A stretch of DNA of 64,000 bases, taken from contig MCFH01000048.1 in the NCBI GenBank assembly GCA_002104945.1, forward strand, positions 310,001 to 374,000. Reading direction: 5' to 3'. This document shows, one piece after another, positions 11,860 to 49,858 of the stretch; the first letter of the stretch is position 1; each line of letters begins with the position of its first letter. A program made the position numbers and the translations under genes. This stretch comes from Piromyces finnis finn. Taxonomy: Eukaryota; Fungi; Neocallimastigomycota. A model generated the notes under the pieces. That model ran no database searches. It had not been told where the DNA came from and worked only from the letters and a program-made list of their open reading frames with translations.

Positions 11860-14800
11860 TTAAATAACTGTGTAACGACCTGTAGCTTCTGAACTGGTAC
11901 CCCTAGATTCTGCTTCAATACAAGATAAGGTGGCTTCTGTGAGAATACGTTTAATTTCTGTTTTTGCTTTATCAACAATAAGTTGAGTTTCACCTTCAAT
12001 AAAGAGATAAAGTTTACGTTCATTAGGTCCTGGTGTTTTACCACTTGGGAAGAAAGTACCTCTAGTTGTAATGGCAGCACCTGTTAATTCTGTAATCATT
12101 GTAATTTGTTCCTAAAAAAAGTTTGAATGAAAAAAAAAAAAAAAAAAAAAGAATTAAAAATTTGTTTTTTTTTTTAATGATTAAAAATATTATATATATA
12201 ATATATGATAAAATATATTATAATTATTTTTATCATTATTATAATTAATCATTACTTTATTGGTAACTCTCCATCTTGCTTTTTGTGGATAATCATTAAT
12301 TTCAATTTCAAAAGCGTATAAAGAGGAATTTTCACTGGCATTTGGATCTGTTGTTGGCTTAACGGCAGTAGATTCAATCTTAATTTCTGGGGTAGCACCT
12401 TCCATAGATTTTTTAGCTTTTACGCTAGCACCAATTTTGGCATTAACCAAAGCAGCAATTTCTTGTACTGCTTTAATCTTATCTGCTTCAATTCCCTTAC
12501 CTGGAATTTTATTTTCTGTACTTGCTGGATTAGTAGTTGAAGTTGTTGTAGTTGAAGTTTGGGTCTTGGTAGTAGAAGAAATATCTGTAATCTTTGAATC
12601 AATACTTTCCTTTAATTTTTCTTCTTCTTCATCTGTATTATCTTCATCTTCTTCATCTAATTCAGCACCGTGGATCTATTTTATTATTATTTATTATTTA
12701 TTATTTATTATTATTATTATTATTATTGTCGTTTATGTATAATTATGATAGGTAATATATATATATATATATAAAAGAATTTTTACCTTTCTTTGAAGTT
12801 TCTTTGAATTTTCTCTTTCTTTATCGAGACGTTCTAAACCTTTACCACCAAATCCAGAACTAGAATATTGAGCATCACCAGCTTTAACTTTATTAATAAA
12901 TTCATCTGCTAATTTTTGTAATTCTGGTGGAATATCGGTATGACTCATTTTTAATGCGCTTACAATATCATTAGCATATTTATCTTGTTGAGGAGTAACA
13001 AAAGTGTAGGCAGTACCCTTATTACCGGCTCTACCGGTTCTACCTACACGATGAACATAATCTTCCAAGTGATTAGGACACTCATAATTAATGACTAGAT
13101 TTAAATCTTTGACATCTAAACCACGAGCAGCTACAGATGTTGCAATTAAAATATTTGTTACTCCTGATTTAAAATCTGAAATAGTTGAATCTCTATCGGC
13201 TTGATCCTTACCACCATGAAGGGATTGGCATGGATAGCCAAAACGAATCAATTCTCTTAATAAATTATCAGCAGCTTCTTGACGATCAACAAAAACGAGA
13301 GTTCGAGGATTCAAGTCTTGCTTGTAGTAAAGACCCAAAATTTCTAACAATCTTCTAAACTTAGTTTCCTCCTCTCGTACTTCAACATGTTGTTCAACAT
13401 CTTCACATACAACACTCTTACCACCTACTGTAATTTCTAATGGTTTAGTTAAAATTTTTCTAGCTAAGGCATCAATTTGACGAGGGAAGGTGGCTGAGAA
13501 AAGTAAGGTTTGTCGATCTGGTCTAATATTATTTACAATTTTCATGACTTGAGGTTCAAATCCCATATCAAACATACGATCGGCTTCATCCAAAACCAAA
13601 TAGGTAACACGTCTTAAATTCGTGACACGACCACTATTAGCACATAACAAATCTATCATACGACCTGGGGTACATACAATAATTTCTGCACCTTTTTTCA
13701 ATTCCGCAATTTGATCTTTAATTGGTGAACCACCATAAGCACAGGTAACATTTAATCCAAGAATACGAGTGAAATGTCTACATTCTTTGTAAATTTGAAC
13801 AGCTAATTCACGAGTTGGTGTCATAATCAATGCAATTGGTCCTTCCTGTGGTTCAAGTGGTCTTTGATCTTTAATAGCTCTAAACATTGGTAATAAGAAT
13901 GCAATAGTCTAATCATATTTTAAAATAGAGCATAATAGTCATAAAAAAATATAAATATTAATATTTTTAAAATATAATTATTATAAATTAATTTGAAAAC
14001 AAGTAGACAAAAAAAAAAAAAAAACTTTATTCCTATTATAATCAAATTAAAGGATTACAATATAAATAAACTACCGAAATGATAATAATAAAAAAAAATT
14101 ACTCTTGAAAATCTTTTTTTTTTTTTCTTACCTTTCCACTTCCTGTTTTGGCAACACTAATAACATCACGACCAGACATAACTGCAGGAATGGCTTGGCA
14201 TTGAATTGGACTTGGTTGTTGATACTTTAATACACGTTTAATAACTTCTAAACAACCTGTAGGAAGACCAAACTGAGTCCATTTTCTTACAGGTTTTGGA
14301 CAATTACGACCTTGGACCTTAATGTTATCTAATTCTTTACGAACTTGTTCTACTTCTACTTGTTTCATATTAGCTAATTCTGGAGGTTCAATATAAAAGT
14401 TTTTACGGAAAGGCTCATATTGAATAGTAGAGTGATCTACTGCAATTAAATCTTTACGTTTAGCTAACTTTTTGGCAGCTAAGGCTAGAATATCTTCTTC
14501 ATCTTCTTCTTCAGTAGTATAATCGTTATCATCTTGATCAATTGGAAATTCAGTACTACCGCTTTCTGTATTCTTTAAAGAAAGTTCATCTTGTTTTTTA
14601 ATTTCTTCTACTTCTTTGTGAACATTTTTCATGAAAGCATCAAGTGCATCTATTTCATCACTTCCTTCCTCATTAGGTTTATCAATATCCATAGCTGAAT
14701 TGGTATCATTCAAATCTGGTTTTGAATCTTTATTTATTATATTTTCATCATCAACATCATCTAATAGTTTTATTTTTTTAACTTTGGGTTTAGCATTTGT

Positions 14801-16217
14801 ATCTATTTTATCACTGTCCATTAAATTAAAACGTTTTAATGCATTAGGGCGTTTTAAACTGACTTTAGGTTTCAATACAAAACTACTACTTTTTTTTACT
14901 GAGTTTAATTTCATACTAGAATTGAAACCAAATTTAGTGGTGGTTGATGCTTTTGATAATGAAATAGACATAGTTGGCTTGGCTATTGGTGTAGTTGGTT
15001 TTAAGTTAATAGATAATGAAGATAATGAAGATTTTTGGGTATCATTTTTTAGTGGTTGGGAATTGTCTTCATTATTGATGGTTTTTGTTTCTTCTACAGC
15101 ATTTTTCTGTTCTTCTAATTTTTTCTGTTGTTCTAATTCATTCTTTTGTTTTATTTTTTTCCATTGTTCCATTCTTTCTCTTCTTTGTCTTAGAATATCA
15201 TTAATTGGTTTCTATTATTATAAAATAATATTAAAAAAAAAATAAAGTTAAATAATATATAAATATTTAATAATTTTTGTTTTCCTAAAATTTTTATAAT
15301 TGAATGGTATTTTTTTTTAATTTCTTTTTTTCTATCAATAAAATAAAATAAATAATCTTTACTTGATCTATACAATTATATTCTTTTATTTCATTATATG
15401 TTATTATATATATATGTTTTTTTTTAAAAAAAAAAAAGAAAGAAAAAAAATAATAATGATTTAACATACGATGAATAAAATTTAGATTAATTATTTGAAA
15501 TAAATTAAATATTATATTATAAAATGAATAATTCGATAAAAAATATATATATTTAACTTTATAATTAATTTGGTAATGATGAATTAAATTAGAAATATTT
15601 AAAAAAACAATAATAACCTTTTCATCTTTTTTGGTTTCAGTTGTGGTAGTTGTAGTTAGTTGCATTGTTTCTGTTTCATTTTGTTTTTGTAATGAAGAAA
15701 TTGATGGAGATTGTATCTTTTCTGTTTTTTCTAAATTGTCATTCACAACTGTTTCTGATATTGGTTTTGTTTCAGTAATTGGTATTGATGAATTAACTAC
15801 ATCTTTTTTTTCTTCTTCTATAGTAGATGTTTCTGTTGGTTGTTGTTTTATTTCTGGTAATACTTCTACTTTTGATGAAGTTTCTGTTGAAATCTCAGAT
15901 TGTGTTATAATTCCGGACATTGCATCAGATTCTTCAGCTTTATTAATTTTTTCTTGAGAAGATTTATGATGGTGTCTACTACTATGACGGTGCTTTTCTC
16001 TTTTTTCATCATATCTACTATTATATCTGTCGTCATCTCTATATCTTTCTTCATCTTTGTATCTATCATATTCTCTATATTTGTCTTCATCTCTATACCT
16101 ACTTTCATCTCTATATCTTTCTCTACTTTCACTATAATCATGGTATCGACTAGAATGGTGACTTGAATGCTTTCTATGCCTTTCTCTTTCTCTTTCTCTA
16201 CTACTATGTCTTCCCAT
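11860..16217 (-). CDS. PRP5: Pre-mRNA-processing DEAD-box RNA helicase Prp5/DDX46, about 1157 aa. Exons 16217-15618, 15211-14132, 13908-12787, 12675-12256, 12111-11860
   Basis: RS/RD-rich N-terminus, [11 protein letters not shown] motif PSPIQ, motif I AKTGSGK/T split by an intron, [27 protein letters not shown], and C-terminal [16 protein letters not shown]...ITTRG. All introns are phase 0 GT-AG. Confidence 0.95.
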
Positions 16218-18399
16218 TTTTTTTTTTTTTAATATTTATTTTAAGTATTTTAAATATTATTTTTTTACAAAAGGTATTCAAATTAAAAATTTATCAAAAA
16301 TTTTTTTTAAAAAAAAAATTTAATATATATATATTAATATATAAGAAAAAAAATTTTGAGAATTTTCAATAGAGTTTTAAATTAATAAATTAATGGATTA
16401 TACATTGGTAAATAAAATAATGCTGCTACTACTATTACAACTACAACAACGACTAATACTACTAATAACAAATAATAAAATAATATATATAAGTTTTTTT
16501 TAAAATAAAAAATATAGATATATAGATATACATTAAGTTTGGAAAAAATATTTTTTATGATATACTTTTACAAAATAATGAGTTACCAACACAAACTTAC
16601 ACCGAACTTCTTTATCAATCAATATTAAAAATTCTGGATAAATATAATTAAAATACAAAACTCATTTATATTTCTATATAGTATGTATTCAATAATATTA
16701 TTAGTTTTATTTTTAATTTTTATTTTAAATATATATTAAGAGAAAAATGTATAAAATTCCATTCTTAAATAAATGGAAAACATGGACAACAAAAGAGGAA
16801 ATATAATTAAAATTCCCATTTTTTGAAAATTTCCTGGCTAAAAGTCTGGTAGAGGTCGGATTTTTTCTGGCAAAAAAGTCTGGCTAAAATCGCCAACAAT
16901 CTAAGATAATTACTATTATTTATTAAAAACATTTTTCATTTAAATAATAAATTCATTATTTCTGTTGCTAAACTTATTTATATATAACTAAATATTATTT
17001 ATTTAAAATATAAATATATCAACAAGATTAATAAAAAAAAACACGAAATAATACCAACTATATTCAATACAAAACTGATACTAATAGTTCAAATAATTAT
17101 ATTTTAAAGCAATTTTATAAAGGTCAATGTATAATATTAAATTTTTAATTTCAAAAAATTGTAACTTTAATTAAAAATAAATAAATATAAGATTGAATGC
17201 ATCTTCTAAGTTTTAGTAGTCTTGGGAAAAAGCTTCATTTTGATCAAACTACGAACTTTTTGTATAGTAATATTTTGTACATTATAATCATCATCGTCAT
17301 AACATTGGATTAAAAAAATAGTATAAATAAATTTATTATGAACTCTAAAAATTTTATGTATATTATTTCCAAATAAAATTTGAAACTATACTTCTTCATA
17401 CATTTGTAATTTATTAATAGACCATATATGATTAATATGCCTTTTTTTTTATTATGCATATTAATTCTAATTCATTTAATAATATATTTACTTTTTATTT
17501 TGTAAGAAATTATCATTTTAATGTAATTATTTATAATATATAATATTTTCTTTATTTTATATGAAATATTTATATATTAAAATATTATAATATTCAATAT
17601 TATTATTAAAAACTATCATTAAATGTTTCACAATAAACCAACAATAAAATTCATTAATTCATTTCAATTTTATTTATAATAAATTTTTTTTTATGTTAAA
17701 TTTAATACCAATTTAAATTAAAAATAAGAGTTTATTATTAAAAATTTAAAAATTTTTATAATTAAATAATACAAGTTTCTTTTTTTTTCTTTTTTCTTCT
17801 TCTTATATAAAGATAATAACAAATAAATTATTATTCAAAATAATTGTAAGAATAATAAATACTATATATTTAAATTATTAATAAAATTATTACATTATAT
17901 TTATCTATCTTTATACTTTTTATTTTTTACTACCATGTTATTGGGGATTATCTTTATTATTCCAATTATACAATGGAAGATATTGAGAAATTAAAAGTGT
18001 TAAGTAAAAATTCATTTACAATTAAACTGATATCTATTCTAAACATATTAATGTGATTAAACATATTAATAATTAAATAATATAAATAAATTTTCTTCTT
18101 TACATTCTTTTTTTTATTCTTGTCAATTATTTGACATATTGATAAATTATATTATATGTATATTATTTTTACAAAAAGAGTTATTTCGTTAAATGAAAAA
18201 TGAAAAATTGAAAAATGCCTATTTAATTCATTTGATGATATACTATATTGATTATAATAGGGAAAAGGCTAAATTGTATAGATTTAATGTTTTCTGTCAT
18301 AAAATGAAAAACTTTTTTTTTACGATTCTTATTCAAAAATAGATGATCTTCATATATTGAAAGATACTATTCTTTATTACTAAAGATAATGATATAGAA

Positions 18400-22480: not shown

Positions 22481-24662
22481 TACTGAATAGTAATTCTCTT
22501 AGTTTACTTTTGGATATTTTTTGTTTATTTATTTTTGAATACTCTTTATTTACTTTTGAATACACTTTGTTTACTCTTAGAAATACTCTTGGACTAATCT
22601 GGATAAATATTGAATTATTGAACTTCACGATTTAAGGAAAAGAAGATGAATCATCAAAGCAACTACGACGACGCCACTCTCAATGATGGATTTGCTGGCG
22701 ACAGTAGTACCTCAAAGGCTTTTTGGCAAAACTTGAACTTATTTTTATGCTTTATCCTGATAGACATAATTGTGATGAAGCTAAAATAGTCTACCTAATT
22801 TCAAGGTTATACGATGATGCCATGAATTGGGTCGCAACAATAATTGATAACCACGACCCATGTTTAGAAGACTACACCGCCTTTACTAAGAGAATGAAAG
22901 CCTTTTATAGAGGTGAGGATATTATTTTCAGCGCAAACCAAAAAACTTAGAACCTTAAAACAAAAACGTATTGGTGAAATTAGAGAATATATTCTCGAGT
23001 TCAACTGATACTCTGGAGAATCGACTATCCCCACATAGGCCATACGCCTGTGAGATACAACTCAAACCAGAATCAAAACTATTTTATAGACTCATCTACC
23101 ATCTACCCTTTAACTGATTTGGAATCCAAAGCCCTTAAAACTTATATTGATGAAAATCTTTCTAAAGGTTTCATACGTAAGTCCAAATCCCCTGCTGGAG
23201 CGCCCGTACCGTTTGTACCGAAGAAAAACAGAGAATTACGTATGTGTGTAGATTATAGACAGCTCAACAACATCACAATACGTGACTCTTACCCTCTTCC
23301 CCTCATCAATGATATGCTGGAACACTTAGGCGAAGCTATGATATTTTCAAAACTTGACTTAAGATCGGCCTATAATTTAGTCAGAATCAAAAAAAGCGAT
23401 GAATACAAGACAGCCTTTACATGTAAATATGGCCATTTTGAGTACTTAGTTATACTTTTCGGGTTAAAGAATGCCCCTGCTGTATTCCAACATTTCATTA
23501 ATGATGTCTTCGAAGATATTCTCGGAATATACGTTTACAGTTATATCGATGATATAATTGTTTTTTCTAAAAGTTATCAAGATCATGTCAATCATCTTAT
23601 TAATGTTCTTAAAAAGTTACGTTCTGCTGGACTCTACGCTAAGTTGGAGAAATGTAAATTTTTTGCCCAGTACATAGACTTCTTAGGACACCAAATCTCT
23701 TTTGATGGAATCTTTATGGACTCCAAGAAAGTTTCCTCTATTTTAGACTGGCCAACTCCAACGAACATTAAAGAAGTTCAGTCTTTTTGGATTTTCCAAT
23801 TACTACAGAAGATTTATCCCAAAATTTGCTCATTTAGCTCATCTTCTTAACTCTCTTCTGAAGAAGAACATCAAGTTCTATTAGTCTAAAGAAGCAGATT
23901 CTGCCCTCGCTACTTTGAAATCTTTATTCGCATCTGCCCAAATCCTTGCATACCCCAATCGTGATCTACCCTTCCTTGTAGAAACAGACGCCAGCAATTT
24001 CGCTATTAGCGCGGTGTTATCACAAAAATCCACTACTGATAGGAAAACACATCCTGCTGCATTTTTCTCAAGATCCCTCACTGCTGCTGAGAGAAATTAC
24101 CCCATTTATGATAAGGAACTTCTCGCGATTGTTGCTTCTTTGGAAAACTGGAGAAATTTGTTAAAAGATACTTCAACTCCGATCATCGTAACCTATTGTT
24201 TCAGAAGAAGCCGGAAAAGATGACTCAAAGACTCGTTCGGTGGTCACTTTTCATTTCTGAATTCAACTTTAAGATTGTTTATCGTTCAAGTGCTTCCAAT
24301 GACAAATCTAACGCCCTTTCAAGAAGACCTGATTACTTTGACTCCACTGTACTTGATAATAAAATCCCTTTTACAGTATTACGCCCAGAGAACTTTTGTG
24401 CTGTTGCCACTCCTATTATTTCTTCATTATCAAGCAAAATCTTTACTGAATGTAAAAATGATAAATTTTATTTGGATATCTGTAACTACCTTGAAAATAA
24501 GAATTTACCTGTTCCACATGCCAATACCAATTTATTCTCTCTCAGTAATAGTTTCCTTCTTTTCAACTTTAAGATATATGTTCCACTTAATACTCGTGTT
24601 GATGTGTTATCCATTTGTCATGACAGCCCTTCGGCTGTAATGAATACTAGAAATAACTAAAT

Positions 24663-24729
24663 TGTCTTAGTGGTTAGTAGCTAAGACTTTGAGTCTGAAT
24701 GACACTAGTTCGAGACCTCATAGATACTA
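24663..24729 (+). promoter_or_regulatory. tRNA-like Pol III A/B-box cassette in U3 of the G1 LTR (also at 30718-30784)
   Basis: A-box-like TGTCTTAGTGG, loop CTTTGAG and B-box GTTCGAGAC at tRNA spacing. The cloverleaf stems are mostly lost. Confidence 0.6.
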
Positions 24730-25940
24730 TTTTAAAAAAATTATAATTTTATTTTATATGAAGATTATTGATTGGTTAAGAATTTTAAGTTGAAAAAATT
24801 TTATAAATTAATTTAAAAAATTTTTAGTATAAATACGAGTGAATTTTCCCAAATATTTTAAAGAATCGAGATTTTATTAATAAATAATTATATTATTAAA
24901 CACTAACTTATTAAGTTAAATTCTATGTGTTTTTAATGATATTTTTATAAATTAATAATTTACAGAATATTTTAAAGTGTTAATATTACTAAGTTATTTA
25001 GTAAATATTATAATTTGTTTTTATTGTTAAAGACACATTTCTTTAAAATAAAATCTCCTTATAATATAAAAGCTTAATACCTTAGTGTTTAAGAAATTGT
25101 TATAGATAAAACTTTTAAGTTTTATTGTTGAAGCTTTTCTTTAAAGAAATATTTTTACTTAAAGTAGTAGAATTAGTACGCTTTAGAAGCGGTATATAAT
25201 TCAAACTATAAAAAGTAAAAGATTAACGGGATCGAGTTTAACCTGTACAATAATTGGGTTGGCAGGCTCTGAGCTATTCTACTTTGAATAAGGAAGTAGG
25301 AGAATCCGAGGTACACCACGTACAAGACGCTGTAATAAGCAAGCTGGCGTGAGATTTATAGTTGTATACTATCTTTTGCTGTTTGATTATAGACCGGAAA
25401 ATAGCCGGAAATGCCTTACTTTAATAAAATAATATTTCTTAATTAATACATTTTAAAATTAAGTTTTCTAATAAAACAATTTCTAATTTTTAATTATAAT
25501 TATTAATTGTTAAGACAATTTATTAAAATTGTAATAATATAAAATAATATTCTTTATAACTCCTTTAGCGTGAGAAGTTAAACTCTTATACATAATACTT
25601 CTACGTTCGGATAAGGTTGATATAGGGAAAGAAAACCTGTAATAATTTTTATTGCTAACAATAAGTTAGACACTAAAAAAAAAATTTTTTACACCGTTCC
25701 TTTCTTTTATTAATTTAATTAATTTAACAATCGACTTTATACGTGTTATCGTGAAGAGCTACGAAGGACTTATTATAAAGAATAAAACAGGTTATATATT
25801 TGATGGTTTAACACTATATAATCTGGTTTATATTATTATTTAATAAAAAGATTTACTCAATTAATAAATATAATTAAATACTTTATTCTATTATTTTTAC
25901 AAATTTATTAAAGCTTATTAAAGAAAACATCATAAGTACT

Positions 25941-28900
25941 ATGGAAGAGAACGAAAACAACCACATGGATAATAATAATATTTTCGAAAACGCAACTCTT
26001 AAGGATGGTTTTGCAGGGGATCGCAGGTATCTGAAGGGTTTCTTAGCTAAGGTGGAGCTAGTGTTTATGCTATATCCTGAACGGTATCAAGACGACGCAA
26101 CCAAAATTCTCTATATAATATCAAGACTTTATGGGGACGCTATGAATTGGGCTGCTACTCTTATAAACAACCATGATCCGTGTCTTAATAACTACCAAGC
26201 TTTTGTTGACAGGTTTAAGGCTTTTTATGGATATAACGATGCTACCTATGTTGCAAATTAAATGCTTAGAACCTTAAAACAACGCCGATTAGGAGGAATT
26301 AGAGGATATATCTTGGAATTTAACCGCTATGCTGATGAATCAAACTGGAATGAACAAGCCAAAATGGATGCATTTATAGCTGGCCTTAATCAACAAGTTG
26401 CAGTTCGTATTTTGGAAATGTTTCCGGGTCCTAGGGATCTTCTTTCATTACAGACTATTGCTTCAAGAATCGATTCAAGATTATCTACACATCATACCTT
26501 TTTCCCTTCTGGTTCAAACAATGACCAAAACCGAAAGAAAAGATCTTTTCATCACTCTTCAAAAATAACAAAGTCCATTACAAACAGGAATAACCATGGC
26601 CCTATCTCAAACGAAGAAAAGGAAAGAAGAAAGAAAGAAAATCTTTGTGTGTATTGTGGTGCTTCAAGTCATAAGCTTAATAATTGTCCAAAAAGAAAGA
26701 ATAAAGATCGTGAAAATCCTTCACTAATATCTATTCCCACACTTATATCCGCTCCTAAAGAAGAATACAAAACTCATAATAAAATGACAACTAAATTTAA
26801 ACTTTCTTATGAACTAAATACGGATATTCTTATTGACTCAGGATCCAAACTTAATTTAATTGATGTAGATTACTGTAACGATAATAACATTCCTTATCAT
26901 GATGACGGTAACCTACCAAATATCGTTGGTATCGGTGGTCGACAATCTCTTTTTGGAATTACATCTCCTTTGAATCTTCGCTACAAAGATCATCTCTGTC
27001 GAACACAATTCTATGTAACTGATCTACCTTATTATCCTTGTATTCTTGGAATAGACTGGCTTAAAGAACACAATCCTTCTATCAATTTCACAAAGAACAA
27101 AATTTCATTTGTATCCGATTACTGTTATAATCGTTGTATAACACTCTCCAATAATGTCCCTGAATTTCCTGAAGAAAGATCTGCTTTTCCTGCAATGGAA
27201 GATCCTTCCTACGAACCTCCGCATGATTCATTCGCTTACCCTATATTTGTCGATAAACAAAACATCCAATCTCAAAACGAAACTAATCGTACTTGTACTA
27301 TTCTCTGTTCGGGTTCTTCAAAAAATATTAACAATTCTGTTTCTAAGAAGTCTTCTGTTAACTTTTCTACTTCGTCTCTCTCAAATCAAGAACCAACTTC
27401 TGTTTTGACTTCTTTTTCTGATTCTAATATTCAATCCAATTCTATTCTCAAATCCGATTCAAACTCTAAATCAGAACCTAATTCTTCTATTATACTTCCG
27501 GATGTTCTCTCTGACTTTGCTGATGTCTTCAATGAATCTAATGCTGAAAAACTTCCTCCACACCGTCCATACGATTGTGAAATAAAACTCAAAGAAAATT
27601 CAAAACTGTTTTATGGACCGATTTATCCTCTAACAGAAACCGAATCAATTGCTTTAGAAGAATATATAAAAGAAAATCTCAAGAAAGGATTTATTAGAAA
27701 ATCAAAATCGCCTGCGGGAGCTCCTATTCTGTTTGTACCTAAGAAAAACGGTCAACTTCGTATGTGTGTTGACTATCGCCAATTAAACTCCATAACTATT
27801 CGTGATTCTTATCCCCTTCCTCTTATACAAGATATGCTTGAACATCTTGGAAAAGGGAAGATTTTCTCAAAATTGGATCTTCGTTCTGCCTATAACTTGG
27901 TCAGGATTAAAAGTGGTGATGAATATAAAACCGCTTTTACTTGCAAGTTAGGTCATTTTGAATACTGTGTGATGCCTTTTGGGTTGAAAAATGCACCTGC
28001 TGTTTTTCAACATTTCATTAATGATGTTCTTGAAGACGTTCTTGGTAAATTCGCTTTCTCTTACATAGATGATATTATTATTTTTTCCTCTGATTATAAA
28101 TCTCATATATCTCATGTCAAAACTGTTTTGAAACTCCTGAGGGATGCTGGGCTCTATGCTAAATTGGAAAAATGCGAGTTCTTTGTTTCTTTTATTGATT
28201 TCCTTGGTCATAGGATTTCTACTGATGGTATTCACATGGACCCAAATAAAGTTTCTTCTATTTTAAACTGGCCTACTCCATCTAATGTTAAAGAGGTTCA
28301 ATCTTTTCTTGGTCTTGCGAACTACTACCGTCGATTTATTCCAAATTTTGCAAAGATCGCTCATCCTTTGCATAAACTTTTGAAGAAAAATGTTAAATTT
28401 GTATGGTCTAAAGAAGCTCAAGATGCTTTCGATTCACTCAAGTCCTTATTTGTTTCTGCACCTGTTCTTATATTTCCTAATCGTGAACTTCCATTCATAG
28501 TCGAAACTGATTCAAGTAACTTTGCCATTGGTGCTATTCTCTCGCAAGTCTCTCCAATTGATAATATGACCCATCCAGTTGCTTTCTTTTCTCGCTCTCT
28601 TACTGGTCCTGAACGTAATTATCCAATATATGATAAAGAGCTCTTAGCTATCGTTACTGCTCTTGAAACATGGCGTCATCTACTTAAAGGCTCTTCTTCT
28701 ACTTTTAAGATTTACTCGGATCATCGAAATTTACTCTATCAAAAGAAACCTGAAAAAATGTCTCAACGTCTTGTTCGCTGGGCTTTGTTTCTCTCTGAAT
28801 TTAACTTTGTTATTATTTATCGTTCTGGTTCTTCTAACGGTAAGCCTGATGCCCTATCTCGTCGTCCTGATTATGCTATCAATTCGAATTCCTCTTCTGA

Positions 28901-30383
28901 TGTTCCTTTTAATGTTCTTCGCCCTGAAAACTTTTGTGCCATTGTGACTTCTGTTTCGTCCATTAGTGATTCTTTTCTTTCCGAATATATAAATGATGAC
29001 TTTTACAATAAAATCTGTGAATATCTTGATTGTAGGAAACCTCCAATACCTCACCCTCAAATTGACAAATTTTCCTTAAGCAATAGTTTTCTCCTTTTTA
29101 CTGACAGAATCTATGTTCCTCCAAATTGTCGTCTTTCAATTCTTAAACTCTGTCACGACTCTCCTTCAGCTGGTCATTTCGGAATAAAGAAAACATCTTC
29201 TCTTATTGCTAGAGACTTCTGGTGGCCTTCTATTTCTTCTGATGTTAAAGACTACGTTCGTTCTTGTGAAGTTTGTTGTCGTTCAAAAACCTTTCGTCAT
29301 AAACCTTATGGTCTTCTGAATCCTCTTGATATTGCTGAGCGTCCTTGGTCATCCATTTCAATGGATTTCATTACAGATTTGCCTTCATCTTCTGGTTTCA
29401 CTTGCATTCTTGTTGTTGTTGATCGTCTTACAAAAATGGTTCATCTCATTCCGTTCAAAAGTATTCCTTCCGCCGCCGAAACAGCCACAGCCTTTATTGA
29501 TAATATTTTCCGTCTTCATGGCCTACCTGAATCTATTGTCTCGGATAGAGGTTCTCAATTTACCTCTAAATTCTTCCAATCCATCTGTTCCTCCCTTGGC
29601 ATTGAACTTAAGTTGTCTACTCCATTTCATCATCAATCAAACGGTCAGACGGAGAGGGTGAACTCCGTTATAGAACAATATTTAAGATGTTTCTCAAATT
29701 ATAAAGGTTCAAATTGGAAAAGTTTTCTTAGTCTTGCAGAATTTAGTTATAACAACGTGGTTCAAGAATCATCCAAATTTTCTCCATTCTTTTTGAATTA
29801 CGGCTTTCATCCAAAATATTCACCAGTTATTCCAGACTTATCTAAAGTCCCAAGAGCAGAAGAGTTTACAAGAGATTTTAAAACTTTAATTAATACCTTA
29901 AAAGAAAATTTAAAATCTGCCATGGAAACCCAGAAGAAGCATGCTGACAAACGTAGAAAAGAAGCTCCGAATTTTAAAGTTGGTGACAAAGTTTGGCTGG
30001 ATAGTTCTTTAATTATCCACAAAGGAAATAAAAAATTTAAGCCAAGAAAACTCGGCCCATACAAAATCTTGGAAAAAATATCAAATGTTACATTTAAATT
30101 AAGTCTCCCAAAATCTATTAAGATTCATCCAGTTATTCATGTATCCAATCTCGAGAAATATGTCGAAGATAAATTTGGAAGATCTCAACCACCACCGCCA
30201 CCTATTACCGTTGACAATGAAGAAGAATACGAAGTTGAAGAAATTCTGGATAAAAGAAGACATTACGGAAAAATACAATACCTGATTAAATGGAAAGGGT
30301 ATTCAATCAATGAAGCTTCGTGGGAGCCTGAAGAAAATCTAAATTGCAAGGGGCTACTTAAAAAATTTAATAGAAAGAAATAA
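25941..30383 (+). CDS. Gag-Pol polyprotein of G1 (gag, CCHC, PR, RT, RNase H, IN, chromodomain), one in-frame TAA at 26259-26261
   Basis: ORFs 25941-26261 and 26262-30383 are in the same frame. Motifs: [27 protein letters not shown] zinc finger, D,D35E (DFI...DRG...E), GPY, chromodomain. Confidence 0.93.
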
Positions 30384-31449
30384 AAAATAGTTAAAAAATT
30401 CAAATTATATTTATTATTAATATTAAAATCACAATTATTATTATTATCAAAACTTATTAATATCATTATCAATATCAATTTTATTATTAAACAATTTATT
30501 AATATCAAATTTATCAATATTTTATTTTTAACTTTAGTAATATTAAAAAAAAAATGTATTTTATTATATTAAATGTATTTTTATAATTAAGAAAATTCAC
30601 TCCTTAGTTTAGTTTATTAAAAAAGAAAAACATATATTTAAATATTAAAATTCTAGATTCGTCTGGTATCCAAATCCTGGAGGAGGACCATGTAACGAAT
30701 GCTAGAAATAACTAAATTGTCTTAGTGGTTAGTAGCTAAGACTTTGAGTCTGAATGACACTAGTTCGAGACCTCATAGATACTATTTTAAAAAAATTATA
30801 ATTTTATTTTATTTTATTTTATTTTTAAATTTTATTTTATATGAAGATTATTGATTGGTTAAGAATTTTAAGTTGAAAAAATTTATAAATTAATTTAAAA
30901 AATTTTTAGTATAAATACGAGTAAATTTTCCCAAATATTTTAAAAAATCGAGATTTTATTAATAAATAATTATATTATTATACACTAACTTATTAAGTTA
31001 AATTCTATGTGTTTTTAATGATATTTTTATAAATTAATAATTTACAGAATATTTTAAAGTGTTAATATTACTAAGTTATTTAGTAAATATTATAATTTGT
31101 TTTTATTGTTAAAGACACATTTCTTTACATCGGCAGGACATTTTGGGATTAAGAAGACTCTTTCCCTTATTCGCAGAGACTTTTGGTGGCCTTCACTTTC
31201 ATCGGATGTCTAGTTGTTTATTCGTTCCTGTGATACCTGTTGCTGTGCTAAAGTCAGCCATCACAAACCCTATGGACTTCTACAGCCTCTTAGTATTGCT
31301 AACAAACCATGGTCCTCCATCACAGTGGATTTTATTACTGATCTACCTTGTTCTAATGGTTTTACTTGCATCATTGTTGTTATTGATCGGCTTACAAAAA
31401 TATCTCATTTTATCCCGTTCAAATCAGTTCCTTCAGCTACGGAAACAGC

Positions 31450-33362: not shown

Positions 33363-34082
33363 TGTAAAATATTGTATTAATAAAATAATGTATAATGTAT
33401 TAAATTAATGTGCTGTAAATTTTACAAACATTTATATCACAATACATTAACATAAATTTATGTAAATTTTAATTTTATGATAAGATAAAATTTTTGATGA
33501 TAAAATAGAACTTTAAATTAAATAATTTTTAACCAATAAATATTTTAGATAATAAAAATTTTTTTTATAAACTAAGCCTCAAAATTAGAAATAAATAAAT
33601 TAAATATATGTTTGAAATATAATCAACCATATAGTAAATAAATCAAAACTTTATTTTAAGTTTAGAAAATTCTTTAGTAAATAAATTGAATTTAAATAGT
33701 TTAATACAAATAATGTCTTTTAATAAATGTATAAATGAAAACAATGTAAAATTATAATATTAAAACATGTATATTAGAATTTATTCAATTTGTTTAAAAA
33801 GTATAAATAAAGAAAATTTTTCGACCATTGAAACGATAGTTGGAAAATCGTATAGTATAGTTTATATAGTTTAGTTTAGTTTAGTTTAAAAATAAAATTA
33901 ATATTGATTACCTAGTGAGGGCTCTGGTAAAATAACCTTCACGGTAAAGGAATCAATGGTTGTTCTAGAATAGATTTTTTAATAAAATTATAAATAAAAT
34001 AATATTAAAATTAATTAGTTTAATTGTGTTGATTTAGTTTAGTGTACGTATACAAACCTGAACTAGTATAGTTTATTTTACA
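33363..34082 (+). mobile_element. Solo LTR family B at the PPT/3'LTR junction of G0, TSD CATGT
   Basis: TGTAAAAT...TTTTACA, with catgt at 33358-33362 and 34083-34087. Homologous to the reverse complement of 49859-50676. Confidence 0.88.
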
Positions 34083-36613: not shown

Positions 36614-37489
36614 TGTAACGAATCTTTAATGATAGGTAATGAAATTAATAAATATAAAATTATTATTATACCTGATTTTTAAGTTAACCCTAAAAGTAAC
36701 TTAAAATAAGTTATAGTTTAATTAAGTACTTTACCAAAATTCTAAAATGAAATTAATCCTAAACACTGCATATATTTTGATTATTGAAAGAAAATAATAA
36801 ACTTTAATTAATCGAGATCAAAATATATAACTTTTGTTAAATTAATTGTTAAATGTTTAATAACTTCGTTAGTAAATTACACTTTAAAAGTAAACAAATA
36901 TAATAATTCATGTTATAAAATAATATAATTAAACACCTTTATTAAAACATTAAAAATAATTATTACTTTAATTAATTGTAAAATAAACAACTTTTTATAT
37001 TCTTTAACTTTTAATTATTTCTTTTATTGTTATTTCTAATTACTTTTATTACTTTTATTGTAAATAGTTATTAATTTTATTGTTTTAATGTAAATAGTTT
37101 AAATTCAAAAGAAAATATAAATACATGTAAATATTCTTATTTTAATCATTATTATTATTATTAATAAAGAAATATTATATAGTTAGATTAATATTTTTGT
37201 AATTTTAATAATCACTTTTATACTTAAATAAATAAAATTTTAAATATTTAAATATTAGAAAAACGAGTGTTTCTAATAAAACAATTTAGTGTTTTTAATA
37301 AAACAATTTTATTAATTTTTATAAAAACAATTTTAAATTTTAATTCATAACTTATATAGTTATAATTAAAGATATAATATAATAATCACTTTTTGAAGTA
37401 AAATTCGAAATTAAGATTATTATCAAATTATATCAATAAATGTAAGAAATAATAATTATTTCAATCTAAATAATTAATATTTCTTATTA

Positions 37490-37673
37490 GTTTAATAATT
37501 TATTTATTTATTTAGTTAAATAATATTTTATACACTTAATTTATTTATTTAATTTATTTAGTTAAATAATATTTTATACACTTAATTTATTTATTTAATT
37601 TATTTAGTTAAATAATATTTTATGCACTTAATTTATTTATTTAATTTATTTAGTTAAATAATATTTTATACAT
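37490..37673. repeat. 46-bp tandem repeat, about 4 copies, inside the insertion in the G2 5'LTR
   Basis: The landmark t(a/g)ca recurs at 37531, 37577, 37623 and 37669. Confidence 0.85.
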
Positions 37674-38308
37674 TTGATTTTTAAATAATATTTATATATA
37701 AGAATCCTGTAATTTAATTGTGTATTACTAATTAATTTACATATTATATCTAAACACGGATTTACTTTAGGAAATCGGTATTTTAAGGTTTTCCCGATTA
37801 TTATAATTGGTTTTACTTAAAATTTACATGATGACTAATATGATTAGAATATTGGTCGAAAACTTGTTTAGGTTTTTCTTCTAGTCTTTTCCTAAACATT
37901 TAATTTGTTAAGATTAGAACCCATTTATTTAACCTTAATTTCTAATAAAAATATAAATAAGACACTCTTGAAATTCTTTAGAAATTCAAGAGTTATTATT
38001 ATAAGAAAAATTAAGTATAATAAATAACAAATAATTCTATTTTAATAAAAAACATATTATTAAAACATAATTTTAATACATCTCACTCTTATCCTCCTTC
38101 CCATTTGTGTTTTTGTTGTTTATTATAAATCCTTATAATAAACTCGCTAAGTTCTAATCTTAATTCTATATTTAATTTTTTATTATTTTTTTCTTTCTAT
38201 ATACATATAATTTAATATTAAATTTTAATATTGAGTTATCAATAAGTAATTATATTGTACTATTTATTATATACATTACAATATAATTACTACAATAAAA
38301 TAGTTAAA

Positions 38309-38382
38309 TAGCTATATTGATTCAATAGTCAAAACCAGAATTATCAATTTGAACATTCTGGGTTCGACTCAACCTGATACCA
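38309..38382 (+). promoter_or_regulatory. tRNA-like Pol III A/B-box cassette in U3 of the G2 LTR (also 43800-43873)
   Basis: TAGCTATATTG(G/A) ... GGTTCGACTC ... CTGATACCA. Confidence 0.6.
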
Positions 38383-38843
38383 ATTTTATAAATAATTTTT
38401 ATTATTACAAAATATAAATACATTAATGTAGCAATTATTGTAGTTCTAGAATTTTTATCAATTAATTTAAAGAACTTAAGAATTTTCTAAAAAATTAAAA
38501 AAAAATTAATTATTCTATTTTTCTCTTTTTATATAATGAAATTAATTCTTAGAAATTCTAAAAATTTTTATAAAAAGTATAAATACGAGTGAATTTTTCA
38601 TCAAAAAATTTTTCTTCGTGTTTTTATTAATTAGAAATAAGTAATTTAAAATATTACAAATACTAATTAATAAATAAAATTAATTTTCAGATTTTTATTA
38701 ATAAAAAATTATTTTCTAAAAAAACAAATTACTTATTTTAGTGTATGCCTATTGTGGTAAAATTTAGTTTTTATTGATAAACTAATAATATTATTATTTA
38801 TCTAATAAAAACATTACAATAAAAACACCTTTCAAAATAACGC

Positions 38844-39279
38844 TGTAACGCATAAAGGTATTGTACCTTTTCACCAAAATTGTATTTTGGGGATCCCTGA
38901 GCTGGCTTCGCCGTCAGGTTGTTGGACGCTGACCTACTTGTCATGTGTTCGACTCCGGGTTCTCTATATTATGGATTAAATATAGCATTCGCTATATTTA
39001 ATCCATAATATTTGTCTATTTCTATTTCTTCTTTTTTATTTAAATAATTGAAGTTACCAATCAATATAAATAATGTTTATTCATAATTATTAAATAAGAA
39101 TATTTATAAATAGTAAATATAAATAATTTATAAAATTCATGTAAATTAGTCTTTAGAATTAGTATTAAGGTTAATTTGTATTAATAATATTAAATAATCA
39201 AATTATTAATAAAATATACTATTAATACAAAAAATAGTTAATTAGTATTGTGTTAACCCGAGTCTCTCGCGTTGTTACA
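38844..39279. mobile_element. Solo LTR (TGTAAC...GTTACA) in the G2 5' leader, TSD AACGC
   Basis: aacgc at 38839-38843 and 39280-39284. Perfect 6-bp terminal inverted repeat. Confidence 0.9.
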
Positions 39280-39301
39280 AACGCAATACCTATACACTAA
39301 A

Positions 39302-39396
39302 TACTACCCTCTTAGAATTCTACCCTCTTAGAACTATACTCTCTTGGAACTCTACCCTCTTAGAATTCTACCCTCTTAGAATACTACCCTCTAGGA
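39302..39396 (+). repeat. Short tandem repeat (about 6 x 14-18 bp, ctaccctcttagaa core) in the G2 leader
   Basis: Directly visible just upstream of the gag ATG. Confidence 0.85.
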
Positions 39397-42300
39397 AATA
39401 ATTTATCTTAGTAAAAAATGGAAGAAGAAAATATAAATAATGCTACCTTCAAAGATGGTTTTGCTGGAGACCGTCGTTACTTCAAAGGGTTTTTAGCAAA
39501 AACCGAGTTACTATTCATGATTTATCCTGAAAAATTCGAAGATGATAATAACAAAATTTTATATATTATATCTCGACTTTATGGAACTGCTATGAATTGG
39601 GCTGCTACCCTGATGAATAACCACGATCCCTGCCTAAATGACTACGAAGCGTTTGTCGGAAGGTTAAAAGCTATGTATGGAAATCATGACGCTACCTTTG
39701 TTGCTAATCAAAATTTAAGAACTATAAAGCAACGCAGACTGGGGGATATTAGAAACTATATTTTGGAATTTAATAGCTATGCTGACGAGTCTTCATGGGA
39801 CGAAGAAGCAAAAATGGACTCTTTTTTAGCAGGCCTAAATGAACAAATAGCTACTAGGATCTTGGAAATGTTCCCTGGACCTCGATCTCTCGTTGCCATG
39901 CAAACAATTGCATCAAGAATAGATTGCCGCCTCTCAACCCATAAACAATTTTTCCATAATCAAGGCCGGAATAATATGAATTCTAACAATGTCAACAGGA
40001 AATCTATGTTCAATAGAAAATCTTTCGATACAAGTAAGCCTCGTGGACCTTTATCTAAAGAAGAAAAAGATAGAAGAAGAGCCGAAAATCTATGTCTCTA
40101 CTGTGGATCAGACGAACATCTTTTAGACAAATGCCCACTTAAGAATAGGAATAAAGCCCCCTCAAGTAGTACACATATAACCAACCCTGAACCAACTTTT
40201 ACCCCAAGACCAAGGATTTCAGATATAGCTAATGTCAATTTACCTATTTACCAATTCGATATGTTAGTATCAAACATTTCTACCAAAGCGAAAATGCTGG
40301 ATTCAGGTTCTCAGTTAAATTTAATTGATATAGTCTTCGTCAAGGAAAAGAATATTCCCTACTTCAAAGAAACCAACCTTCCCAAAGTGTCTGGAATTGG
40401 AGGAAATCAACCAATACTAGGAAAAACACTTCCAATCTCGATCGGTTATGAAAACCATAAATGTTCTGTGGAATTTTACGTCGTGGATCTCCCCTCATAT
40501 TGCGCTATTCTTGGAACAGAATGGTTGAGTATTCACAACCCAACTATTAATTTTTCCACAAAAGAATTAACCTTTAATTCTAAACATTGTATCTCAAGTT
40601 GCTTAATTATCCCAAGCACATTTACTGCTTTTGCCACTCCAGAGAAATCAAATTTGAAGGAAAGCATTGAACCAAAAACTGATAATAAAATTCAAGAGTT
40701 ATTACCAGCTAAACTTCTTCCATTTAAGGATGTTTTTGATGAAGGATCTACCAATAAGTTGCCGCCTCATAGGCCATACGATTGCGAAATCAAATTGCAA
40801 TCAGACTCCAAGCTATTTTACGGGCCAATTTATCCGTTAACTGAGAAAGAGTAAAATGCACTTAAGGATTACATTGAAGAAAACCTCTCTAAGGGATTCA
40901 TCAGGAAATCAAAATCTCCAGCTGGAGCGCCGGTACTTTTCGTACCAAAGAAGAGCGGAGAATTAAGAATGTGTGTAGACTACCGCCGCCTAAATGATAT
41001 TACAATTCGGGACTCTTACCCGCTCCCTTTAATAAATGATATGTTAGAACATCTAGGAAAGAGTAAAATATTTTCAAAACTCGATCTCCGATCTGCCTAT
41101 AATCTTATAAGAATAAAGGAAGGAGACGAGTATAAAACAGCTTTCACATGTAAGTTCGGACATTTCGAGTATTTAGTAATGCCTTTTGGGTTGAAAAACG
41201 CCCCAGCCGTTTTCCAACATTTTATCAACGATGTCCTTGAAGATATTTTAGGAAAATTTGTATACAGCTATATTGATGACATTATAGTTTTCTCCAATGA
41301 CGCCTCTGCTCATCTTAAGCACTTATCAGAAGTTTTAAAAAGACTTCGAGAAGCCGGCCTATTTGCAAAACTAGAAAAATGTGAGTTTTTCAGTCCCTTC
41401 CTTGACTTTCTTGGTCACCGAATATCAGCCGATGGAATACTTATGGATCCGAAGAAAATCTCTACTATTTTAGAATGGCCTATTCCAACCAATGTTAAGG
41501 AGTTACAACAATTCTTGGGTTTGGCTAATTATTACCGCCGATTTATTTCAGGTTACGCGAAGATTGTCCATCCCCTTAATAATCTCTTAAGAAAAAATGT
41601 AAAATTTAAAGTATCCGGTGAAGCCTTAGTCTCGTTTAACACAATAAAAGCAAAATTCACCTCCGCACCTATTTTGGCTTACCCTAATAGAGACCTTCCT
41701 TTTATGGTAGAAACCGATAGTAGTAATTTCGCGATTGGGGCCATACTTTCTCAGACATCACCAACTGATAATATTACTATTGCAGTAGCTTTCTATTCAA
41801 GATCTCTAACACCTGCTGAACGTAATTATTCCATTTATGATAAAGAACTCTTGGCCATCGTGGACTCACTCGAGCACTGGAGACACTTTTTGAAATGAAC
41901 GGAAACCCCATTTAAAATTTTCTCTGACCATCGCAATTTACTTTACCAGAAGAAACCAGAGAAAATGACACAAAGACTTGTTCATTGGTCTTTGTTTTTA
42001 TCAGAATTTAATTTTAAAATAGTCTATCGTCCAGGATATTCTAATGGAAAAGCCGATACTTTATCTCGTCGTTCAGATTATGTTACTTCTAATAATTCTT
42101 CTTCCTCTGATACACCATTTTCAGTTCTTAGACCTGAAAACTTTTGTGCTATTATCACTACGGTTTCCTCCTTAAATGAACAAATTTTATCAGGATACAA
42201 AAATGATGAATTTTATAATGGAATTTGTAATCAACTTAGCTCACCCATAATGAAAAACAAATCATCTAAGGTTAAAGGTAAGAATTTCTCAATTAACAAT

Positions 42301-44076
42301 AGTTTTTTACTTTTTAAAAATAGGATTTATGTTCCTCCTGCCTGTCGACCATCTGTACTGAATATTTGCATGATTCTCCTTCCGCTGGACACTTCGGCAT
42401 CAAGAAAACTATTTCTTTGATCTATCGTGACTTTTGGTGGCCCTCCATGATTACTGATATTAAGGACTATATCCGATCTTGCGATACTTGTTCCCGATCC
42501 AAAGATTTTAGACATAAACCTTACGGCTTCCTTAACCCTCTTAATCTTCCATCAGTCCCCTGGGTATCTCTTTCTATGGATTTTATAACCGATCTTCCTT
42601 TGTCTAATGGATTTACTTGTATACTGGTTGTTCTCGATCGCTTCACCAAAATGGGTCATTTTATTGCTTTCCCAAACGTTCCTTCCGCCGTTGATACCGC
42701 TTCCGCTTTTATGAAACATGTATTTAAACTTCATGGTTTACCAAATGAAATTTTTTCTGATAAAGTTGCCCAATTCACCTCTAAATTCTGGATAGCTATT
42801 TGCAATACTCTCGATATAACTATGAAGTTAGCTTCCCCTTTTCACCACCAAACCAATGGTTTAACGGAGAGGGTGAACTCCGTTATGGAGCAATATTTAA
42901 GATGCTATACTAACTATAAAGGTAATGATTGGAATGATTACTTATATTTAGCCGAATTCAGTTATAATAATGCTACTCAGGAATCTTTGAAACATTCCCC
43001 CTTTTATTCAAATTATGGTTATAATCCTAGGTTCTCACCAGCTATACAAAGTAATACCGATGTACCAAGAGCAAGTGAGTTTACTAAGGATCTTTCCGAA
43101 TTAGTTAAAGAACTTCAAAAGAACTTAGAACATGCAACTGAAAAACAAGAAAAATTTGCAAATAGGTACAGAACGGAAGCTCCAGAATTTAAGAAAAATG
43201 TCAAAGTTTGGATCAATAGCTCACTAATTATTCATGATGGAAATAAGAAACTGAAACCAAGAAGACTTGGACCCTACAAAGTAGTAGAAAAGATATCTAA
43301 AGTGTCGTATAAAATTGATCTCCCTCCAAGTATTAGGATCCATCCTATTATTCATGTAGTCGAGCTTGAACCGTACTATGCAGATAAGTTTGGAAGAAAC
43401 AAGAAACCTCCACCACCAATAATAATTGATAACGAAGAGCAATACGAAGTTGAAAAAATTCTTGACAAAAGGAAACACTACGGTAAGATCCAGTACCTTA
43501 TCCAATGGAAAGGGTATCCACTTTCAGAAGCCTCATGGGAGCCAGAAGAAAACCTAAATTGTCCAGAATTACTTAAAGAATTTACTAAATTAAATTAAAA
43601 AATATATATATATATATATATATATAACTTTCATGTATTTATTATAATAATGTAAAAGAAAATTCACTCATTTAAAAAGTTATAGTAATTAATTGAAATT
43701 AAATAATTTAAATAAACTTTAATTGGAAATTTGTAAAAGATTCGTCTGGAATCCGAATCATAGAGGAGGACCATGTAACGAATCTATAAAATAGTTAAAT
43801 AGCTATATTGGTTCAATAGTCAAAACCAGAATTATCAATTTGAACATTCTGGGTTCGACTCAACCTGATACCAATTTTATAAATAATTTTTATTATTACA
43901 AAATATAAATACATTAATGTAGCAATTATTGTAGTTCTAGAATTTTTATCAATTAATTTAAAGAACTTAAGAATTTTCTAAAAAATTAAAAAAAAATTAA
44001 TTATTCTATTTTTCTATTTTTATATAATGAAATTAATTCTTAGAAATTCTAAAAATTTTTATAAAAAGTATAAATA

Positions 44077-44691
44077 TGTAAAGATATCAAACGCCTCAAC
44101 TTGATATCTTTAATGTAACTTAAGCCATAAGTATTATTGTTTAAGTTACACAAATTATTCAGAAAAAGAAAATGAGACATAATTTATTTATTAATAATTA
44201 AAGTTTAAAACAAAATAAATTATTAATTTATTTTTAATGTTTAACAAGTAAATTAAAATTCTCAATTTAAATCCCTAGTTTTAGTATTGTTTTTTCATAG
44301 AAATAGATAAATAATATATAAATAATAAATGATTAATATATCAATAATACATGGGCACATATTCAAATTGAATAGTACTTAATTTGAATTGCCAATTGTA
44401 TTTTACTAAAAAAATAGTTATAGTTTAAATATTTATTAATAATTAAGATTTTAGTGTAGATTTTAAATAATAATATATAAGAAATAAATAGTTATAATAT
44501 AATATAAATGTATTTAGGAAAAATATAAATAGAAGATATTTTTCATCATTTTATCGATGTAATTGTTATTAATAAAATTTCTATTATAATAAAAGATATT
44601 TTTAATAAAACAATTTTTTATTTTATTTTAAATTTAGTGTTATTGTAATAGAATAGATATCCTAATCTATTCTTTCCGTGTCAGCATTACA
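44077..44691. mobile_element. Solo LTR (TGTAA...TTACA) inserted in the TATA box of the G2 3'LTR, TSD AAATA
   Basis: aaata at 44072-44076 and 44692-44696. Removing it restores agtataaatacgag, as seen at 38576-38589. Confidence 0.88.
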
Positions 44692-44929
44692 AAATACGAG
44701 TGAATTTTTCATCAAAAAATTTTTCTTCGTGTTTTTATTAATTAGAAATAAGTAATTTAAAATATTACAAATACTAATTAATAAATAAAATTAATTTTCA
44801 GATTTTTATTAATAAAAAATTATTTTCTAAAAAAACAAATTACTTATTTTAGTGTATACCTATTGTGGTAAAATTTAGTTTTTATTGATAAACTAATAAT
44901 ATTATTTATCTAATAAAAACATTACACAT

Positions 44930-48674: not shown

Positions 48675-49858
48675 ATTACATTCTGATAAATAATTAAATT
48701 TATAAATTATAAATTATAATAATAATAATAATATGTCATAAATACTAGTGAAATCTGCAATTTCAAGATCACTTGAAATTGTAAAATTACTTATAAAATT
48801 TCAAAATCAATAATATTCTATTTTCAAATAAATTATAAAATTATATTAAGAAATATTTAAAAATTTAGAAAAGGTTAAGATATGACCTTAACCTTTAATA
48901 TTTTTTATAATGAATAACTTTAACCCTTATCGTTATAACTTAATAACGAAAAAACAATCGTAACTCGACAACGAATGACGATTTTGGATAAATATGTTTT
49001 GGGAAATACGCTTGAGATAAACAACATATCTTAAAATCAGGTCAATATCTCTGCTGGTTCACGAGATATTCCAATTTAAAGATATTTTGTTAGTAATGAT
49101 TAATTGTTTATTCAGAGAATGATCACCCCTGATGTATCAAACATAAATCATTCACTCAAAAATAAAAAGAAATTATTTTAATCACAATATATAATTTAAT
49201 TATTCGCTTATAAAACAATTAAGATTATTTTAATAAAACATTTATTAAATTATAAGTTTAGTAATATTAATATTAATATTAAAACACAGATAGTTAAAAA
49301 TTAAAATAATTAACTTGTATAAAATTATTAAATTAAAAATTCTAAATGTAAACTTTTTGTTTATTTAATTGTTTAATTCTTTTTGAATTAAATAGTTTAT
49401 ATTTGTTTATAATTATACTTTAAAGTAATAATTTTATATAAATAGTAATAGAAAATGCTTTTTTTAAAACTGTTCCTAATAATCCGTCAAAATTGGATAT
49501 ATTATATTAAATTTAATAAATGGTTACTAATTATCCAAGAGAGAAAAATTAGATATTTATTTTAATAAAACAATATTTTTTATATAACTTCTATGACACA
49601 TACAATATGTATTAATTCTTAATTATTTAATAATACGAGAGTTATTTAAATAATATTATAATTTTATAATTAAACATAATAAACTTTACATTTTTAAAAA
49701 ACAAATACTTGCAAATGAACAAGTATAAAAATCATTTATTTTATTTTTAATTTTCTTATTTTTATTTATTAAATTTTAGATACAAGTATTATCACTTTCT
49801 ATAGTAAAATATAGAATTAAAATAATATTCTATACGTATCAATTCATTACATGGTCCT

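Follow-up and report, generated by a model that had tools for sequence, protein, structure and literature searches.

Among long terminal repeat (LTR) retrotransposons, RNA polymerase III (Pol III) promoters have so far been described in elements that are short and non-autonomous and whose own transcription they drive. Helenus elements (TRIMp3), non-autonomous and present in fungi, animals and plants, have tRNA-derived LTR promoters (Kojima 2024, PMC10886601). As characterized in the sections of that article on these promoters, Helenus elements measure 311-1263 bp and carry the tRNA-derived sequence in both LTRs, where conservation is strongest around the A and B boxes; the sequence mostly yields no functional tRNA, is not used as a primer and is proposed to drive the element, while fungal members lean on Copia elements and on tRNA primers. 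The same sections argue that autonomous partners lack this LTR and have to rely on Pol II, and note that "not a few" Repbase LTRs contain tRNA-like pieces, which the author left unanalysed; one supplementary file of the article holds zero anaerobic-fungus genus names. The Cassandra TRIMs, non-autonomous as well, also have an internal Pol III promoter inside their LTRs, which is of the 5S (type 1) kind and gives a transcript shown to run from LTR to LTR, as summarized there (PMC10886601).

Among autonomous LTR elements, the foamy viruses, which are retroviruses, are known to have a Pol III unit with A/B boxes in U3. In the parts of the literature that deal with them, these cassettes give short transcripts distinct from the genome RNA made by Pol II, some of them two-hairpin RNAs, with long miRNA-type stems and demonstrated products (PMC3993851, PMC7693620). 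Self-priming Ty3/gypsy elements of the Tf1/Tj1 type and chromoviruses are characterized by a primer-binding site (PBS) complementary to the 5' segment of their RNA, a 5-bp target site duplication (TSD), TG..CA LTRs and a chromodomain integrase, all of which recur in the element described here; Tj1 targets tRNA genes, and the portions of PMC4600332 on these elements describe no Pol III LTR cassette. In a Culex gypsy copy, a tRNA dimer is reported at the PBS, as a single insertion (PMC3286476). In yeasts, furthermore, tRNA genes and their A/B boxes are described as barriers to heterochromatin, an activity that depends on the boxes (PMC7990762).

Here we describe a tRNA-type cassette in both LTRs of G1, a gag-pol chromovirus in a 64-kb stretch of Piromyces finnis DNA, hereafter the window. 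G1 agrees with the above account of Helenus in its paired, box-centred, non-priming tRNA-like sequence and its fungal host; unlike Helenus, it is a 6.5-kb coding element and not a TRIM, it primes itself, and it has a separate TATA box downstream of the cassette with its own predicted start. From Cassandra it differs in promoter type, autonomy and predicted transcript. It resembles foamy viruses in placing an A/B-box unit in the U3 of an autonomous element and in a predicted short transcript distinct from the genome RNA; unlike them, G1 has short predicted stems of 6-13 bp, tRNA-gene geometry and a place among fungal Ty3/gypsy elements. As in the yeast barriers, the A/B boxes would be the working part and a tRNA product would be dispensable for the proposed role, but those barriers are host loci whereas the G1 unit would be carried and spread by a retrotransposon. 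The original prediction regarded a tRNA-type cassette in an autonomous fungal chromovirus as without known precedent. A survey of the open-access literature, subscription papers and Repbase entries being outside its scope, found no autonomous Ty3/gypsy element with a conserved U3 A/B-box cassette; in a wider sense, the claim is limited by the published tRNA-derived LTR promoters of Helenus and U3 Pol III cassettes of foamy viruses.

Results

G1 was read directly at positions 24636-31129 (+) of the window, about 6.5 kb, between two copies of the TSD TCGGC (24631-24635 and 31130-31134). Its 412-bp 5' LTR (24636..25047, +) ends in TTTAAA; its 3' LTR (30691..31129, +) ends in TTTACA, an ending also present in runs X5-X7 (runs X5-X8 are contigs of presumed RNA and are not informative on starts or levels). 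The gag-pol frame (25941..30383, +) has the order reverse transcriptase-RNase H-integrase and a C-terminal chromodomain, which together with the LTRs, the polypurine tract (PPT; 30679-30690, +) and the 5-bp TSD identifies G1 as a chromovirus (Ty3/gypsy). This copy holds a single in-frame stop, in gag (26259-26261), and close relatives have uninterrupted frames of 1400 aa; the Orpinomyces gene model P0030 is a close pol relative (66% aa). G1 is nested within the integrase of another chromovirus, G3, in a window with a GC content of 11-37%. This low GC and the Orpinomyces relative, the only named one close in pol, point to an anaerobic gut fungus as the likely host. Pieces of a host DEAD-box RNA helicase gene (12733-16235, -) adjoin the retrotransposon stack. 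A 25-nt motif directly upstream of the PPT (30655-30690 in G1; also at 33324, 43738 and 50710 (-)) is nearly invariant in all four chromoviruses of the window and in five metagenome relatives, with the cassette or without it.

The cassette of the 5' LTR opens with the A-box TGTCTTAGTGG (24663..24673, +), which fits TRGYNNARYGG at 10 of 11 positions and aligns with the perfect A-boxes of two metagenome relatives (L005, L008). TTAG follows directly, TTG stands at 24689-24691, and a perfect B-box, GTTCGAGAC (24708..24716, +), lies 34 nt after the A-box; a GATACTA ends the cassette at 24729. The first T4 run, TTTT (24730..24733, +), 13 nt after the B-box, is a putative Pol III terminator, although a weak one in AT-rich DNA. 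The copy in the 3' LTR (30718-30788; A-box 30718-30728, B-box 30763-30771) is letter-identical. Direct reading thus confirmed the box letters, their positions and their repetition in both LTRs, as first reported for this DNA. The two LTRs differ by six substitutions, none in the cassette, which chance alone would give in about one third of cases. With a rule that asks for an A-box with at most one mismatch and a perfect B-box at a spacing of 25-60 nt, dinucleotide shuffles of G1 produced a box pair in 0/600 whole LTRs and 0/3000 stretches of the first 130 nt; the corresponding counts were 2/600 and 0/3000 for the related element G2, and 1/600 and 4/3000 for L005. The rule is loose and also matches three further places in the 64 kb, none of them an LTR cassette, so that a single match is weak; the case for the cassette is carried by conservation across families and not by the lone match.

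Five outside loci were obtained by a metagenome scan whose search pattern, taken from the 3' UTR/PPT side, does not include the cassette. Nine matches were returned, of which five are retrotransposon loci, all with the cassette; the other four (L003, L004, L007, L009) were dropped as chance matches, with a GC content of 0.48-0.51 and no pol match. Counting G1 and G2, which carry it in both LTRs each, the cassette occurs in seven families that are 67-82% identical in pol (aa; L002/L005, 82%). The two boxes are 33-34 nt apart in all seven, which is the geometry of a type 2 Pol III promoter and matches class I tRNA genes without an intron. The A-box is never more than one mismatch from TRGYNNANNGG, and the B-box is perfect in six families and broken in the seventh (L001, GTTAAATAC). 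The cassette lies in U3, at just 20-28 nt from the LTR start, or 45 nt in L001. Identity per column averages 0.92 at the fixed positions of the B-box, 0.77 in the A-box, 0.84 in both and 0.56 in the other columns (permutation p: boxes together 1.8e-4, B-box alone 9e-4, A-box alone 0.06 and not significant). When the five full LTRs are compared, identity reaches 59% in the cassette, with 26% expected from composition, and 36% in the downstream U3, with 37% expected, which puts the latter at background; the comparison of boxes with neighbouring U3, which had been proposed as a check, therefore favours the boxes. In a sister subfamily (contigs of runs X2, X7 and X8), the spacer has changed and the B-box is kept. 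A T4 run follows the B-box by 13-23 nt in 7/7 families and a T5 run by 21-50 nt in 6/6, although T runs are common in this AT-rich DNA. Judged by this conservation, the cassette is a lineage trait kept across seven families, and it is very probably a selected Pol III-type promoter. The central proposal, that the U3 of a gag-pol chromovirus carries a tRNA-type Pol III promoter cassette (type 2), is thus supported at the level of sequence.

The LTRs of G3 and G4, close relatives at 57-67% aa, have no cassette, and this absence together with the broken B-box of L001 indicates that the cassette is dispensable in the clade. In the pol tree, from which L001 was left out as too short and in which L006, whose pol belongs to an unrelated element, served as root, support is 46-53 and does not separate loss of the cassette in G3 and G4 from original absence. 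Protein scans gave 18 further loci; none of the 14 inspected has the cassette, an absence that is weak for L010, which ends short of the LTR, and for the more distant L011-L013 and L015 (49-54% aa), in which only the first 45-75 nt of the LTR are visible. A covariance model matched only the four cassettes of the window and the five training loci, the next scores (15-23 bits) falling at non-equivalent places. Viral and genome contigs gave zero matches when scanned with DNA patterns, as did viral contigs in the initial protein scan. Of note, AT-rich contigs with these chromoviruses (L010-L018) occur in several GTDB rumen prokaryote MAGs, likely as fungal contamination. The LTRs of G3 (33900-33960, +) and G4 (~50000-50060, -) have in common a conserved GC-rich block 3' of the TATA box, and the G4 LTR abuts a PPT remnant (49851-49858, -) followed by an LTR-like start (TGTAATGAAT) without cassette.

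In G1, a Pol II TATA box, TATAAATA (24828..24835, +), is found downstream of the cassette, in the order originally proposed, and it is conserved in all five families with full LTRs. The PBS (25048..25057, +) is of the self-priming type and does not correspond to a tRNA 3' end, so the cassette is not needed as a primer; its partner is a self-primer segment at 24868..24877 (+). As in Tf1-type elements, this 10-nt pairing, with covarying letters and at 38-43 nt after the TATA box, is present in all five testable LTRs. Since the 5' segment of the mRNA is what serves as primer in such self-priming (PMC4600332), the genomic RNA is predicted to start near 24867, that is, ~140 nt 3' of the cassette, ~40 nt after the TATA box and beyond the T4/T5 runs. 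With its predicted start downstream, the element is likely not driven by the cassette; as the cassette cannot easily be the genome promoter, selection would have to keep it for another job.

The identification of the cassette with tRNA-Gln(UUG) did not withstand comparison. The anticodon-equivalent triplet is TTG in G1 only, and TCA, ATT, ATC (three families) and CTC in the other six; in cloverleaf register, 41% of positions are paired, below the level of shuffles, with the anticodon stem paired in 43% of cells. ARAGORN called zero tRNAs in the window and in 17 loci, and Rfam gave no tRNA match on 24500-25500 even at E<=10 and, over the window, nothing at gathering score and only chance matches at E<=10. 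The varying triplet, the chance-level pairing and the lack of a call rule out a tRNA-Gln(UUG) gene. The same data agree with the earlier statement that the D, T and acceptor stems are lost while the boxes stay. Of the "anticodon arm" described with it, the letters are present, but only four of five pairs form and the TAAGA strand pairs better with the A-box.

A fold of two hairpins is predicted in six of the seven families, in which the A-box pairs with the next 25 nt and both boxes are hidden. In G1, predicted hairpin 1 (24664..24687, +; 8 bp) pairs the A-box with GCTAAGAC, and predicted hairpin 2 (24690..24720, +) pairs GAAY (24697-24700) with the GTTC of the B-box; GAAY is conserved at 0.93 though it is not a promoter element. 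In fixed register, the two-hairpin model is 79% paired and four pairs are changed on both sides; its covariation score was equalled by 0/500 shuffles, a count that is not a probability because the model was built on the very sequences it is scored on, which are related. Hairpin 2 has just one pair changed on both sides, to which the sister subfamily adds a compensatory C-G to U-A change, and hairpin 1 shifts register in L002, L005 and L006 (68% paired). G2 prefers another fold, with a probability of 0.00 for either hairpin. As modelled, then, two hairpins fit better than a cloverleaf (79% versus 41% paired), G2 excepted.

G2 (36614..44926, +), 67% identical to G1 in pol (aa), has boundaries and a TSD, CATTG, that are confirmed by an empty-site paralog. 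One cassette of G2 is in the 5' LTR (38318..38387, +), where the B-box is at 38362-38370 and the A-box has changed at one position since the insertion described next; the other is in the 3' LTR (43809..43878, +; A-box 43809-43819, B-box 43853-43861). A TG..CA element of 1665 bp without ORF (36630..38294, no strand assigned) interrupts the 5' LTR behind base 16; it is flanked by a 4-bp TSD with one mismatch and matched to no class. The end of this element lies 23 nt before the A-box, equivalent to 16 nt before the +1 of a tRNA. In the portion of the literature that concerns integration distances, DGLT-A is reported to insert on average 15 bp, and Ty3 ~15 bp, upstream of the mature tRNA (PMC5006619). 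The chance of such a position under uniform insertion is 0.3-1.3%, given two insertions inside G1 and G2, for what is a single event with an imperfect TSD. We infer that the -16 insertion may be an indirect footprint of TFIIIC/TFIIIB assembly. A further insertion, a 615-bp solo LTR with the TSD AAATA, sits at 44077-44691, inside the TATA box of the G2 3' LTR, and its start resembles the LTR starts of L011/L012.

Discussion

Our preferred reading, to which we assign a probability of roughly 0.45, is that the cassette is a docking site for TFIIIC/TFIIIB used mainly as a chromatin barrier for the element's own Pol II promoter. The A-box/B-box pair at the outer edge of U3 would bind TFIIIC and load TFIIIB, which, given the place of the cassette close to the LTR start, would occupy the LTR edge and its flank. 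This barrier, or open-chromatin anchor, would protect the Pol II promoter 110-270 nt downstream, and the gain would be chromatin that stays open locally inside silenced, nested stacks of retrotransposons, such as the one in the window, in which chromodomain elements end up. Pol III would yield a short RNA of about 75-100 nt. The genomic RNA includes the 3' copy of U3, and an intact cloverleaf in it would be a substrate for RNase P and RNase Z. For this reason, hairpins in which the D-loop and T-loop letters are buried would have taken the place of the cloverleaf; they would shield the genomic RNA from both enzymes while the boxes in DNA remain intact. The landing of elements that seek tRNA genes would probably be a side effect. 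A barrier of this kind would show by what means the promoter of an element stays usable after insertion into silenced chromatin, and would offer a portable insulator of 70 bp and a compact Pol III promoter for fungi that are short of genetic parts. It would also imply that a retrotransposon has spread thousands of TFIIIC sites and that nested clusters are shaped by the LTRs of one clade.

More tentatively, the parts may be joined into a wider proposal, which we consider rather unlikely as a whole: in an autonomous retrotransposon lineage that seeks heterochromatin, a domesticated tRNA gene serves as a portable TFIIIC/TFIIIB insulator at the LTR edge, an "anti-tRNA" refold evades the tRNA-processing nucleases, and the site is used by tRNA-gene-targeting elements, so that the LTRs of one clade would set where another integrates.

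The cassette may instead be kept for its product, a two-hairpin Pol III RNA of ~75-100 nt acting as a decoy or small-RNA source versus host RNA silencing. We regard this as unlikely, even though the fold predicted in six families, its compensatory changes, including the one in the sister subfamily, and the T4 run after every B-box are in its favour. The stems, at 6-13 bp, fall below the length of a Dicer substrate; the loops are the promoter boxes themselves, leaving no separately conserved seed; G2 folds otherwise; and T runs are common in AT-rich DNA. The U3 dumbbells of foamy viruses, as described in the parts of those reports on Pol III products, nevertheless provide a precedent (PMC7693620, PMC3993851).

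A mobile landing pad was among the roles first suggested, in the sense that a Pol III-like target would steer tRNA-gene-seeking elements into LTR stacks. The insertion into G2, at the distance known from Ty3 and DGLT-A, is a first hint that the site is used, but three of the four cassettes in the window have no insertion upstream, and the one event breaks the 5' LTR of its carrier, which is a cost. Neither G1 nor G2 landed near a B-box (0/2, no B-box within 200 nt of either insertion site), in which they differ from Tj1, described as targeting tRNA genes (PMC4600332), so that nothing here points to a gain for the clade that carries the cassette. We consider it improbable that the cassette is kept for this role.

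That the cassette is a neutral relic, a tRNA gene or the head of a tRNA-derived SINE captured once in U3 and slowly decaying, is very improbable. Its absence from G3 and G4, its damage in L001, and the missing cloverleaf and ARAGORN/Rfam matches are compatible with decay, but boxes and spacing have held at 67-82% pol identity while the neighbouring U3 fell to background, which largely refutes it. Less credible still is a structure that acts only in genomic RNA or cDNA behind the PPT, in plus-strand priming, packaging or end processing, with its likeness to the boxes left over from a tRNA ancestor. The fixed place, 27-52 nt from the LTR start, and the conserved GAAY-GTTC pairing would suit such a role; against it, the B-box letters outside the stem (equivalents of A58 and C61) are invariant in 7/7 families while the two free box positions vary, and the spacing stays at the tRNA value. 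Finally, synthesis of the genomic RNA by Pol III from the cassette, for which the identical boxes in both LTRs could be cited as in Helenus, is almost certainly not the case, as T4-T5 runs lie 13-50 nt past the B-box, the conserved TATA box and self-primer mark a downstream start, and a 6-kb coding RNA is beyond the range of Pol III as argued in the sections of Kojima's paper on autonomous partners (PMC10886601).

Outside the LTRs, the 5' UTR of G2 has a GC-rich structured stretch (38888-38963; z -2.55) without an Rfam match at gathering score. It contains a second B-box, GTTCGACTCC, at 38947, with a degenerate A-box 45 nt ahead of it, and the words CTGAGCT and GACGCTG recur in the 5' UTR of G1 (~25255-25350). 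This stretch is possibly a packaging signal, a ribozyme or a second tRNA-like unit.
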